DNA of 64,000 nt from Verrucomicrobiota bacterium (GTDB lineage Bacteria; Verrucomicrobiota; Verrucomicrobiia; Limisphaerales; AAA164-E04). Within the stretch, counting starts at the first letter, position 1. Every line of letters begins with the position of its first letter. This document shows, piece after piece, positions 57,333 to 61,362 of this stretch. Below the pieces are notes generated by a model. It was not told the origin of the DNA. It ran no database searches and saw only the letters and a program-made list of their open reading frames with translations. The translations under genes and the position numbers were made by a program. The stretch lies in contig CP170459.1 in assembly GCA_047947115.1 (NCBI GenBank), positions 4,896,001 to 4,960,000 on the forward strand, read 5' to 3'.

Positions 57333-58424
57333 TCACTGACTTTCGGATGAGGTGTGGCGTTTCAGGATTTGGTCGATGGCCCATTGGGCGTGCTCGGCAA
57401 TCAGGGGTTCCGGTTCACATTTGGCTTTTTCGAGAGCTGGCAGGGCTTGTTCGTCTCCAACGTTGCCTAAAGCCACACAAACGTTTCGTAACAAGCCTCG
57501 CCGCTTGCTTCTCATCATGGGAGTGCCCTGAAATGACTTCTTGAACTGTTCATCATCCAGTTCAAGCAAGGCAAGTAGGTCTGGTCGCTTCAAATCATCC
57601 CTGCGTGCTGAGTGCATCAAGTTCCCTTCCCTAGCGAACCGGTTCCAGGGACAAACTGCCAGACAGTCATCACACCCAAAAATACGATCTCCAATGGAGG
57701 ATCGCAGATCTTCAGGAATCGATCCTTTCAGTTCAATGGTCAGATAGGAAATACACCGACGGGCATCTAGCTTGAAAGGTTCCAAAATCGCATCGGTCGG
57801 ACAGGCATGGAGGCAGCGGGTGCAGGTTCCACAACGATTTTTCTCCGGTTCATCCGGTTTTAGATCAAGTGTTGTGAGGATTTCTCCCAGGAAAAACCAG
57901 TTTCCAAGATCCCGACTGATCACATTGGTGTGTTTCCCCACAAAGCCCAAACCGCTGCGCTGCGCCAAATCGCGTTCCATGATCGGCCCGGTATCCATGT
58001 AGTAGAGATGATTTTCATCCGGACCGACCATTGATTGGATAGTTTCAACCAGACGCACCAAAGCTGGCTTGAGGACATCATGATAGTCCTCATACCTGGC
58101 ATATCGGGCAACTGTACCCTTTGCACCGACTGGCATTTCACCGATTTCATCGACTCCAGAATCTCCCGGAAAATAAGAAACCGCCAGGGTGATGACGCTC
58201 TTAACCTGAGGGAGTACTGTGGATAAATCAGCTTTTTTTGCGGAATGACGGGCGAGGTATTCCATTTTCCCATGCATTCCCGCATCAACCCAGGACCGAT
58301 AGGATGGCCATGTCCCGGGTGTGCGGGCGTGGGTAAAACGACAGTGATCAAAACCTAATTCGATGGCCTGTTGTCGGATGCAATCTTCAAGCGTTCCCGT
58401 TTTAAAACAATTCATAGCCAACAT
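57333..58424 (-). CDS. queG: Epoxyqueuosine reductase
   Basis: GMHGKMEYL, ARYARYEDYH, DTGPIMER, CGTCTRCLHACPT, RCISYLTIE, FGCDDCLAVCPWN. Confidence 0.95.
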   Translation of the reverse strand: MLAMNCFKTGTLEDCIRQQAIELGFDHCRFTHARTPGTWPSYRSWVDAGMHGKMEYLARHSAKKADLSTVLPQVKSVITLAVSYFPGDSGVDEIGEMPVGAKGTVARYARYEDYHDVLKPALVRLVETIQSMVGPDENHLYYMDTGPIMERDLAQRSGLGFVGKHTNVISRDLGNWFFLGEILTTLDLKPDEPEKNRCGTCTRCLHACPTDAILEPFKLDARRCISYLTIELKGSIPEDLRSSIGDRIFGCDDCLAVCPWNRFAREGNLMHSARRDDLKRPDLLALLELDDEQFKKSFQGTPMMRSKRRGLLRNVCVALGNVGDEQALPALEKAKCEPEPLIAEHAQWAIDQILKRHTSSESQ

Positions 58425-58434
58425 GCTACCCGTT

Positions 58435-58989
58435 TCAAGCCTCTCCTTCACCGGATTCACGCCTTTGCACCTGACGGAACTGGCGAACGACAATCTGGCT
58501 AATTTGTCGCATGGGTCGGGTTTCAGTATTAATCATCAAATCCGCAGCCTGATAGAATACCTTTCGTTTAGCCAGCAAGTTGGTGATCGTTCCCAGGGGA
58601 TCTTCAGTTTGCAACAGGGGGCGGTGAGATTGCCTCTTAACCCGGTTGAATATCGTCTGAGGCGAAGCCCACAGGCATACGACAAAGGCATGTTGTTTCA
58701 GGTGATCAATATTGTCCTCGTAAGTCACCAGGCCTCCCCCCGTAGAGATCACGCAGTGGTTCCAGGATTTCATTTCCATGACCAAATCTCGCTCCAACCG
58801 ACGAAAATGGTCTTCACCGTGCTCTGCAAATATTTGTGCGATACTTGTTTTTTGGCGCTGCTCAATGATTTCATCCGTATCGACAAAACGATAGTTGAGA
58901 AAATCGGCAAAATGACGCCCCATTGTGGACTTACCGACTCCCATGAAGCCGATCAAGGCAAGATTACGAATGTGACGTTCTGCATACAC
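58435..58989 (-). CDS. aroK: Shikimate kinase
   Basis: LIGFMGVGKST, DTD, GEDHFRRLE, ISTGGG, RPLL. Confidence 0.95.
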   Translation of the reverse strand: MYAERHIRNLALIGFMGVGKSTMGRHFADFLNYRFVDTDEIIEQRQKTSIAQIFAEHGEDHFRRLERDLVMEMKSWNHCVISTGGGLVTYEDNIDHLKQHAFVVCLWASPQTIFNRVKRQSHRPLLQTEDPLGTITNLLAKRKVFYQAADLMINTETRPMRQISQIVVRQFRQVQRRESGEGEA

Positions 58990-59139
58990 ACCTTTTGGTT
59001 ACATTAGTTTGAGACCGGAACCAAGGCGGAAATGAGTCCAATCAAACAAGCCACAAAGCTGGAGCATCATCCGGAGTATTCAAAATGCATTCATTGCACG
59101 CTCCACCAACAGCTCAAGATCGCAAAGCCTTCCCTTCTT

Positions 59140-59350
59140 CAGGAAGGAGTGGCCGGGAGAGGATGGAGGAATCCCGGCCACTCTGAGCCTGAATACACAT
59201 GACTTCTGTCATATGTGGGTTTCCGTAGAGTCTCACTTAGGAAAGACCCTGTGAGTGACCGGGCTGAAGCTTCTAGGTTGCACCCTACTTGAAGCAAAAA
59301 GTTTAAAACCCGGTCACTCATTGGCCTGATAACAGTGAGTGGATCACCCG
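59140..59350 (-). ncRNA. Candidate ~210-nt sRNA: long rod, short hairpin and a terminal hairpin with a C-rich loop
   Basis: 12-bp stems TGAGTGACCGGG/CCCGGTCACTCA and GAGTGGCCGGGA/TCCCGGCCACTC; minus-strand TTGACC-17-CATGCT promoter immediately upstream. Confidence 0.55.
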
Positions 59351-59438
59351 GTGCAAAGCATGCATCAACCCCACACATAGGTCAATAGATAATTTTTCGC
59401 AACTTACTGCTTTTTAATTGCTTCCATATTTTTTGAGC

Positions 59439-59523
59439 GTCGGTTTTTCAATATTTTGTCGGTTTTTCAATATTTTGTCGCTTTTCAATAACTCAGATTA
59501 TTGGTTTTGTCGGTTTTTCGATA
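59439..59523. repeat. Four-copy array of GTCGGTTTTTC(A/G)ATA: two exact 19-bp tandem units and two variants
   Basis: 59439-59457 and 59458-59476 identical; variants at 59477-59490 and 59509-59523. Confidence 0.85.
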
Positions 59524-59853
59524 CTTTCGTAACAAATTCTCATTTTCCACGATTAGAAAAAATGGGCAGAAAAAAATGAATGTTTTTCAATTTTTTCCCT
59601 TCATCCTTGTTTCATCCCCTCCTCAAGTCCCGTTTTTCATGTTCAACATTCTGAATTTCATCACCTATTCCTTTTTCTTAAGTCTGGCAGGCGGATTCCA
59701 CATGGTCTTGAAATCGGCATTGTTCGTGAAATAAAGAATCCGGTCTCGGAACTGAATCTGTTCCCGATCGTTGAATCTTTGCCCCAAGAAGAACGCTTGA
59801 CCGACACGCCTTTTTGTGCGGGACTTATCCGCAATCCCAACTGCTTTCGAATC

Positions 59854-61362
59854 ATGATTACGTTTTTAGCTCAAGCTACCGCGGCAACCAGCATATCAAT
59901 GTGGCCCATGGCCATCTTGGCCATCTGCGTCTTTTTTATTGTGATAGCCATTACGGTCCTGAGGGTCCACGCCTTCCTGGCCCTGATATTGGCCGCCTTT
60001 CTGGCAGGTATCCTAACTGGAGATCTGCCGAATCCAAACGAACTGAACAAAGGAACATTCCACTCCAGGAAAGCTCTTGACATGAGTGAGTTGGAAGGCA
60101 ACAACCTCACGAAAGCCGTGAAGTGGTCACTCATGGGGTTTGGGGATACAGCTGGAGGCATTGGCTTGGTCATCGCTTTGGCAGCGATTATCGGCACATG
60201 CATGATGGGCAGCGGGGCAGCAGATCGCATCGTTAGAGCTCTTTTGAAAACTTTTGGCGAAAAGCGAGCAGGTATCGTATTATTGCTCAGCGGGTTCCTA
60301 CTATCCATCCCGGTATTTTTCGATACGGTGTTTTTCTTGCTGATACCTTTGGCGCGCGCCCTTAGTTTACGCACGGGGAAAAGCTACACTTTTTATGTAA
60401 TGGCCATGGCCGGAGCAGGAGCTATTACTCACTCAATGGTTCCTCCAACCCCGGGCCCCCTCATGATTGCTGAAGAATTAAAAATCGAACTCGGCATCGC
60501 TATCATGGCTGGTCTCGCGGCGAGCATCCTTCCCGCATGGTTAGTGCTGATCCTGTCAAAACGCTTCGACGACAAGTTTAACATTCCCATGCGTGATATC
60601 TCAGGAGCTTCTAATGAGGACCTGCAAAGCATTGTAAATAAAAAGGATTCGGATCTGCCTGGATTATTTCTTTCATCCATACCTGTTGCTTTTCCGGTTG
60701 TCGCCATTTCATTGGTTTCTGTTCTCGGTTTATTCGATGCCGATGCATACAAATTCTTCCCATACCTCGAGTTCATTGGTCAGTCGAATATCGCGATGTT
60801 GATCGCCGCAGGTTTTGCAGTTTTCACCTATGCACGGCAACTGATCATTACGACACCATCCCTCAAAGGGAACCTCTCCCGCACACTGAGTGAGAAACTG
60901 GAGGCCCCACTGCAGACAGCCGGTGTCATCATCATGATTACAGGGGCGGGAGGCGCTTTTGGCGGGATGATTCGTCTGGCTGGTGTGGGCGAAACCATCG
61001 AAGCTCTGGCGCATAAATTTAACATTTCCTACATCTTGCTTGCCTGGCTGGCAACGGCGGTCGTTCGTATCGCTCAGGGTTCTGCAACGGTGGCCATGAT
61101 TACCGGGGTTGGATTGATGTCGGCTGTCATTGGAGACGGAAGCACCTTGGCTTACCATCCGCTCTATGTCTTTCTGGCGATCGGATTCGGGTCCATCACC
61201 ATGTCCTGGATGAACGACAGCGGTTTCTGGGTCGTACAACGCCTGAGCGGATTCACCGAAAAGGAAACGCTCAAGACTTGGACGGTGCTATTGACAGGTA
61301 TTGCCGTGCTGGGCTTGATCGAAACTTTGATCTTTTCAAAGATTCTTCCTTTGGCCGGATAA
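59854..61362 (+). CDS. GntP/DsdX-family permease
   Basis: VHAFLAL, SGAADRI, SIPVFFD, HSMVPPTPGP, RIAQGSATVAMIT, SWMNDSGFW. Confidence 0.93.
   Translation: MITFLAQATAATSISMWPMAILAICVFFIVIAITVLRVHAFLALILAAFLAGILTGDLPNPNELNKGTFHSRKALDMSELEGNNLTKAVKWSLMGFGDTAGGIGLVIALAAIIGTCMMGSGAADRIVRALLKTFGEKRAGIVLLLSGFLLSIPVFFDTVFFLLIPLARALSLRTGKSYTFYVMAMAGAGAITHSMVPPTPGPLMIAEELKIELGIAIMAGLAASILPAWLVLILSKRFDDKFNIPMRDISGASNEDLQSIVNKKDSDLPGLFLSSIPVAFPVVAISLVSVLGLFDADAYKFFPYLEFIGQSNIAMLIAAGFAVFTYARQLIITTPSLKGNLSRTLSEKLEAPLQTAGVIIMITGAGGAFGGMIRLAGVGETIEALAHKFNISYILLAWLATAVVRIAQGSATVAMITGVGLMSAVIGDGSTLAYHPLYVFLAIGFGSITMSWMNDSGFWVVQRLSGFTEKETLKTWTVLLTGIAVLGLIETLIFSKILPLAG

Follow-up and report, generated by a model that had tools for sequence, protein, structure and literature searches.

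The element studied here sits 5′ of aroK and queG and is divergent from a GntP permease gene, in a 64,000-nt stretch of the genome of a Verrucomicrobiota bacterium (the whole stretch is called the window, and the genome G000). An earlier note had described it as a candidate small RNA of the minus strand, with a sigma70-like promoter, a long rod, a 9-bp hairpin and a 12-bp stem carrying a CCUCC loop, and each of these features was recovered in its place. The hexamers TTGACC (59385-59380) and CATGCT (59362-59357), separated by a 17-nt spacer, are all present on that strand. The MFE and centroid folds of the 211-nt minus strand yield the rod (59349-59217), the hairpin (59216-59195) and then the 12-bp stem (59183-59172/59158-59147), whose 13-nt loop reads UUCCUCCAUCCUC; the two 12-bp stems of the element are each a perfect inverted repeat. 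This fold (−95.6 kcal/mol, z = −7.42) was equalled in stability by 0 of 200 shuffled sequences. As the plus strand folds well too (z = −6.25), the strand is not fixed by folding alone. The genes and the elements next to the promoters are the following:

57333..58493, minus strand: queG, epoxyqueuosine reductase (PF08331 and PF13484; ORF taken from its longest start)
58435..58989, minus strand: aroK, shikimate kinase (PF01202, E 3e-45)
58996..59024, minus strand: promoter-like TTGGTT-17-TAACCA just 5′ of the aroK start, separate from the promoter of the RNA (RNA A below)
59357..59362, minus strand: −10 element CATGCT, conserved in position; the start of the RNA is inferred near 59350
59380..59385, minus strand: RNA A −35 element, TTGACC; 10/11 g1-type homologues have TTGA.. 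with identical spacing
59422..59519, strand unassigned: CGAC-containing direct repeats, possible operator sites, 5′ of the RNA A promoter

The CGAC repeats at 59422-59519 are possibly operator sites for RNA A or for the divergent gntP. CGAC/GTCG words near the RNA A promoter number one to four in the eight genomes of genus g1 and zero in G010 and G012, with a genome mean of 1.2 per counting window. Two coding readings of the element were discarded. A 79-codon ORF runs across it and has no Pfam match, and a short ORF that starts at a 5′ GUG varies in length among homologues and, by inspection, is frameshifted in G006.

The earlier note could assign the RNA to no known family and named 6S RNA as one whose match would remove the novelty, and the comparison with Rfam agrees with a novel RNA that is not 6S: region 58500-60000 gave four matches, the best with an E of 1.3, and no 6S match at E ≤ 10. 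The long irregular rod of RNA A in G000 resembles 6S RNA (RF00013), but the rod is not conserved, being kept in only 2 of 14 homologues, and this identity was rejected. The genome's only 6S match, to the full model, lies at G000:C1:1157649-1157830 (−), with 44.3 bits against a cut-off of 46.4 and an E of 2.7e-7, and is likely the 6S RNA. SRP RNA, tmRNA and RNase P RNA are also all encoded elsewhere in the genome; the gene of the last lies within the window, at 30331-30721 (+), with 229.5 bits.

The conserved core of RNA A and its lineage-specific parts

Homologues of RNA A were gathered from 30 aroK-upstream loci and through a pattern search (10/61 genomes). A covariance model places the RNA in 10 of the 22 genomes of the family, a family of marine Verrucomicrobiota, with 8/8 of genus g1 and 2/3 of genus g2, and in all ten it lies on the same strand, directly 5′ of aroK. 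Additionally, a DNA search gave strong matches in six of the seven other genomes of the genus. The homologues keep a promoter whose spacing is fixed, a hairpin at the 5′ end (P1), a near-invariant 25-nt 5′ segment and a covarying stem (P2), and they share a layout in which a 5-bp P1 with a UCCAC or UCCAA loop is followed by the single-stranded GUUAUCAGGC and by a 13-bp P2 with a variable top. Judged by sequence comparison, RNA A is likely a conserved element of ~105 nt that is transcribed independently, 5′ of aroK, as a small regulatory RNA. The length of ~210 nt given in the earlier note does not apply to the conserved unit, which spans only ~105 nt. The parts of the RNA in G000 are these:

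59322..59349, minus strand: near-invariant 5′ segment, the predicted partner of RNA B in a 28-bp duplex (see below)
59334..59348, minus strand: P1 hairpin, 5 bp, loop UCCAC (consensus fold; the outer rod competes with it in G000)
59309..59320, minus strand: 5′ arm of P2, the conserved long stem (fold, covariation, inverted repeat)
59264..59308, minus strand: variable apical domain, a GCUUC/GAAGC stem with a G-rich loop (fold and homologues)
59252..59263, minus strand: 3′ arm of P2; the ~105-nt core ends near 59245
59217..59248, minus strand: outer rod, 3′ arm, pairing back onto the 5′ segment (limited to G000 and G001)
59195..59216, minus strand: 9-bp hairpin, largely missing in G001 and not conserved
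59145..59196, minus strand: UCAGGC + P2 unit repeated in tandem in degenerate form; carries the CCUCC loop at 59171-59159 (G000 and G001 only)

The proposal that the RNA has its own sigma70-like promoter is strengthened by the homologues. Ten of the 11 distinct g1-type homologues have a TTGA.. hexamer 17 nt before a −10-like hexamer, at a constant distance from the start of the RNA, and the spacers between the hexamers are divergent. The exception is G006, which has TTGTGC at −35, and no −35-like hexamer was found at this spacing in the three g2-type homologues. A promoter scan reported no site here because the RNA A promoter has 8/12 consensus matches, below the 9/12 that the scan required.

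The covariation that the earlier note had proposed to look for in the aroK-upstream regions of relatives is present in P2. Over 11 sequences, 97.9% of the cells of this stem are paired, with three two-sided pair changes and five one-sided changes via G-U, and slid controls pair at 33-55%; the covariation score, which the relatedness of the sequences inflates, was reached by 0 of 500 shuffles. The five one-sided changes keep G-U pairing on the minus strand, a pattern that fits the novel, minus-strand structured RNA that had been claimed. In P1, 94.5% of cells are paired and no two-sided changes occur. A possible pseudoknot between the P1 loop and the apical loop was noticed by eye.

The homologues divide the structure that had originally been described: the core is kept in 10 of the 22 family genomes, but the rod and the CCUCC hairpin are found in only two of these ten. 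Among 14 distinct homologues, just two have their 5′ end paired with the far 3′ arm, over 18-19 nt versus 2-7 in the others, and the 133-nt rod consequently cannot be regarded as the defining structure. The CCUCC hairpin repeats the UCAGGC + P2 arrangement and is matched again by the covariance model of the core, R1 (59145-59192, E 0.0056 in G000; E 0.0018 in G001), and is therefore better described as a degenerate tandem copy than as an independent anti-Shine-Dalgarno module. The outer rod and this hairpin would thus be lineage-specific additions. The earlier model, in which an RNA of ~210 nt would offer its rod as an RNase III or 6S-like substrate and block ribosome-binding sites through the CCUCC loop, has in its favour that the structure is real in G000 and that G001 rebuilds the rod from different letters and has the CCUCC loop as well. 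Nevertheless, rod and loop are absent from 8 of 10 genomes, the loop sits in a duplicate stem, a better 6S candidate exists elsewhere in the genome, and the use of Shine-Dalgarno sequences looks weak in this genome (such words are barely enriched 5′ of roughly called gene starts, 10.3% vs 7.5%). We consequently give this model very little credence, and the loop is not retained as a functional seed.

A distant RNA complementary to the 5′ segment

The 23-nt core of RNA A occurs exactly twice in the 6.08 Mb of the genome, even when four mismatches are allowed. The second copy is antisense and lies 3.5 Mb away on one contig, at C1:1435542-1435569. No other perfect complement of at least 15 nt to the 5′ segment was found in the genome, so that RNA A has in G000 a single perfect complement of 25 nt, which G-U pairs extend to 28 bp. 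This complement belongs to a plus-strand element in the fmt-rpmE intergenic region (G000:C1:1435481-1435760), here called RNA B, which is structured over ~270 nt (z = −3.5; 2 of 200 shuffles as stable) and ends in an intrinsic terminator before rpmE. RNA B has no match in Rfam (the best, with an E of 0.23, is to the terminator hairpin only), and the Rfam 15 gathering threshold is reached neither by this RNA nor by RNA A or its homologues.

RNA B was found in 3 of the 22 family genomes (G000, G001 and G007), 5′ of rpmE each time. Between G000 and G007, identity is mostly 30-55% in stretches of 25 columns but 21/25 at a G-rich hairpin on the 3′ side; in the three-way alignment, the invariant parts are an 11-nt block of the anti-A site and this hairpin, whose GGGGU-GGGG-ACCCU is invariant in the three genomes. 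The word CUGA appears seven times in 170 nt in G000 and five times in the same part of G001, and these words are not kept in G007; windows with at least six of them make up 0.014% of the genome. Some other features of RNA B were considered and set aside. Its small ORFs are not shared, as neither the start nor the stop of a 15-codon ORF of G000 and G001 has an equivalent in G007 and the ORFs further downstream are different, and a hammerhead-like CUGAUGA in G001 is absent from both G000 and G007. A pairing of the CCUCC loop of RNA A with the G-rich hairpin of RNA B was also rejected: its −15.0 kcal/mol is not specific, since 187 of 4,401 start regions reach −14. In G001, the terminator loop of RNA B carries an apparent insertion of an inverted-repeat element, and the assembly is broken there (L054:1-75, L079:1-60).

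The predicted duplexes between the two RNAs cover 28 bp with one G-U pair in G000, 32 bp with three G-U pairs in G001, and 25 pairs over 27 positions, with four G-U pairs and two mismatches, in G007. Their energies (−56.6, −55.7 and −39.8 kcal/mol, respectively) compare with −23 to −25 kcal/mol (sd 2-3) for 40 shuffled controls each, and the next best duplex among the 4,401 start regions is at −34.9. Cofolding of the full RNAs leaves a net gain of −20 to −32 kcal/mol. Each RNA B pairs best with the RNA A of its own clade; for instance, that of G007 reaches −39.8 with its cognate partner versus −33 to −35 with the others. All eight transition differences within the three duplexes are G-U pairs for the A-sense/B-sense combination and mismatches on the opposite strands, an asymmetry that draws on few independent changes (~p 0.04 for G007 alone, by our own estimate) and in which the terminal pairs are biased by ascertainment. 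At one position the pair reads U-A in G000 and G001 but C-G in G007, a compensatory change across the two loci that represents a single event. Taking this comparative evidence as a whole, we consider it quite probable that RNAs A and B pair with each other.

Outside the three genomes, RNA B was not found by pattern, DNA or model searches in G002-G006, G008, G010, G012 or genus g3, genomes with a completeness of 52-95%; for G002 and G012, the search for rpmE itself was also negative. In G006, fmt directly adjoins rpmE with no insert, and G003 and G005 have at this position another insert of ~350 nt without any complement to RNA A. This insert (L083/L082) has a promoter-like TTGACA-17-CATGAT site, and its sequence possibly encodes another small RNA. 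In a tree of aroK and queG, G007 groups with G002-G006, apart from G000 and G001 (support 96-100). As RNA B is present on these separate branches, it is likely old and would have been lost or replaced several times.

The range of both RNAs is narrow, since A is known from 10 and B from 3 of the 22 genomes of one family that is itself mostly known from metagenome assemblies. With strict filters, model R1 added no genome among 141 of the order, and viral contigs gave no matches; weak model matches in G004/G005 and G008 are antisense to genes and were judged to be due to chance. Among 24 metagenome matches, 14 correspond to RNA A, 4 to RNA B of the G001 type and 6 are unrelated, and 10 of 13 matches in genome collections have Verrucomicrobia-type titles. 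Most of the sequencing runs in which the stretch occurs are of estuarine, marsh or marine origin.

The RNA evidence consists of assembled contigs only, which show presence in RNA libraries and not strand, ends or level. In two of four runs, a single contig covers RNA A downstream of 59312 or 59320 and runs on across aroK into queG, and in the other two (X5 and X7) RNA A has no contig cover. The contigs of X1 and X2 stop at 59312/59320 and region 59321-59840 is nearly bare; X1-X3 are perhaps one campaign, and these gaps in cover are not taken as proof. RNA B has contig cover in all four runs: fmt and rpmE are bridged in two, the contig is broken near the terminator in one, and there is a separate 131-nt piece in one. 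In X6, contig depth is 40.9 on RNA B versus 2.3-2.6 on fmt, a depth that cannot rank expression. No intrinsic terminator of RNA A was found in G000, and a U-run follows P2 in G010 and G012.

Possible roles of the two RNAs

The reading that we tentatively prefer, at a little short of an even chance, is that RNA A is a stand-alone, seed-bearing small RNA and RNA B an unlinked sponge that covers the whole seed and acts independently of Hfq. The seed of RNA A for its mRNA targets would consist of the exposed P1 loop and the single-stranded GUUAUCAGGC, and P2 would act as a protective scaffold. Once made, RNA B would zip along the whole seed, for which a chaperone may be unneeded, and RNA A would be silenced, probably with cleavage of the ~30-bp duplex by RNase III. 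That no Hfq was found in the genome, in which RNase III is present, favours this reading, and as to which RNA regulates which, the sponge direction is the most likely for RNA B. Against it, only three of the ten genomes that bear RNA A yielded RNA B, no mRNA targets above the level of shuffled seeds were found, and the compensation in trans is a single event.

Two further observations speak against the sponge and for its main rival, namely that RNA A has no intrinsic terminator in G000 and that contigs bridge it into aroK-queG in two runs. According to this rival, RNA A would form the 5′ leader in a long mRNA of aroK and queG, a leader that the earlier note had mentioned as an alternative, and RNA B would be a trans-acting small RNA that opens the rod or recruits RNase III, thereby setting the output of the genes. 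The constant position of RNA A on the same strand directly 5′ of aroK in 10/10 genomes and the resemblance of RNA B to a classical small RNA, stand-alone and with an intrinsic terminator, also fit a leader. However, the TTGG-17-TAAC element 6-7 nt before the aroK start recurs at 19 of 21 loci of the family, whether or not the genome has RNA A, and is found at 0 of 9 loci of other families and 0.45% of the genome's gene starts, a pattern that was picked after seeing the loci. From its position, this element suggests that the aroK mRNA is nearly leaderless, and as aroK has its own promoter-like element, RNA A need not be its leader. Moreover, RNA A lies at a variable distance from aroK (183-354 nt), an expression platform is not conserved, and the seed is near-invariant in seven genomes where RNA B was not found. 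For these reasons we regard the leader as rather unlikely; a riboswitch or attenuator was rejected on the variable spacer (183-354 nt) and the separate aroK element. The reverse direction, with RNA B as a regulator that has mRNA or protein targets of its own (through the CUGA words and the exposed GGGG loop) and RNA A as its antisense inhibitor, would account for the richness of RNA B in CUGA (seven words in 170 nt), its invariant G-rich hairpin and its terminator. Yet RNA A is kept without RNA B (10/22 vs 3/22 genomes) and the CUGA repeats are not kept in G007, and we consider it improbable. The shared 25 nt might also be a feature of the DNA, either a site bound by a protein or an old duplication in inverted orientation, whose RNAs do not pair, as the DNA of the two sites is almost the same in G000 and G001. 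By contrast, 6 of the 25 positions are changed in the G007 site, four of these changes keep G-U pairing in one strand combination only, the U-A/C-G swap matches the cognate RNA A, the motif is non-palindromic with two occurrences only, and no promoter at the spacing of RNA A was seen on the matching strand of the B locus, all of which makes a DNA-level feature quite improbable.

The near-invariance of the seed in the seven genomes in which RNA B was not found implies that RNA A must have another partner. The first 9-10 nt of RNA A (GGUGAUCCA, window 59340-59349) are complementary to the 3′ tail of 16S rRNA (C1:~2575600), with a predicted −17.6 kcal/mol, and a partner present in every genome would explain the conservation of the 5′ end where RNA B is missing. 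RNA A could accordingly be directed at the ribosome, and RNA B, by mimicking the 16S tail within the 28-bp site, could free RNA A from it. We hold this to be very unlikely, since GGUGA is buried in P1, the central A is missing from G006 and the remaining 15 conserved nucleotides are left unexplained. If it were true, it would amount to an RNA-only switch acting on ribosomes and encoded beside rpmE, and we know of no bacterium with a switch of this kind.

For the preferred sponge reading, mRNA targets of RNA A were sought in the 4,401 roughly called start regions, a search in which gene starts are rough and short or bulged seeds would escape, and the best seed duplex (−29.3) was no better than those of ten shuffled seeds (−27.8 to −32.4). 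Sites of 14 nt with wobble amounted to 62 rows in five relatives, 49 of which were used (13 G001 rows were omitted), together with 17 sites in G000. Apart from the RNA A locus, those common to genomes were three orthologous pairs, all within protein-coding sequence, and they are explained by protein coding. A dispersed intergenic repeat of ~186 nt was met at G000:C1:3786920-3787663 and about 75 other places, partly in tandem arrays; it has a hairpin loop UUCCAC with GUGGAA downstream, a possible pseudoknot. The seed of RNA A pairs with the consensus of this repeat at −21.2 versus −18.7 ± 1.0 for shuffles, 0/60 of which reach that value. The repeat was nonetheless rejected as a partner, as the family was chosen after matching and its wobble complement is only ~9 nt.

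Type I toxin-antitoxin pairs, such as tisB/IstR-1 and dinQ/AgrB, combine ~20-30 nt of complementarity, adjacent genes and a small hydrophobic toxin. RNAs A and B share with them the long, near-perfect complementarity of separately transcribed RNAs and the probable susceptibility to RNase III, but they are encoded 3.5 Mb apart and neither has a conserved ORF; without a conserved toxin ORF in RNA B and with unlinked genes, this class was rejected. A tracrRNA/CRISPR repeat pair was likewise discarded, as the complement occurs once and not as an array.

The pair appears closer to the known sponges. RosA of Bacillus subtilis, an organism in which Hfq plays no global role, is a stand-alone sponge with long predicted duplexes with the small RNAs RoxS and FsrA (PMC8216469). 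As in RosA, a sponge would pair over a long stretch with a small RNA, and RosA's G-rich regions recall the G-rich hairpin of RNA B; however, RosA pairs via G-rich/C-rich regions, whereas A and B would form one continuous duplex of 27-32 nt (PMC8216469). This comparison is one of features, and no sequence similarity was seen. CrfA and SisA-D of Caulobacter were found on Hfq, with a pairing of ~13-15 nt (CrfA G49-C63, SisA G33-C45) (PMC12559287). In this system, as in QrrX/Qrr of Vibrio, an unlinked non-coding RNA covers the seed of a small RNA (PMC12559287, PMC13501541). Nevertheless, CrfA and QrrX act on families of sibling small RNAs, whereas here there would be one small RNA, a pairing of ~30 bp and no Hfq found (PMC12559287, PMC13501541).

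By its sequence features, the A-B pair would work like known small RNA-sponge pairs and is a homologue of no Rfam family. No paper on regulatory RNA pairs in Verrucomicrobiota was found in a search of titles and abstract starts, with subscription papers and supplements outside its scope, and RNA A is apparently a small RNA of narrow distribution that had not been described, with good support for its distant antisense partner. The pair would be a first concrete RNA-RNA circuit in Verrucomicrobiota, recognised from sequence alone. Among the sponge pairs compared, it is unusual for its near-perfect duplex of 27-32 bp, its unlinked genes and its signs of co-evolution across 3.5 Mb. The long complementarity may stand in for a chaperone, as the failure to find Hfq suggests. 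A screen for intragenomic antisense matches between intergenic RNAs could reveal more pairs of this kind; here, a second non-coding RNA that covers the seed of RNA A with conserved complementarity was met in three genomes.
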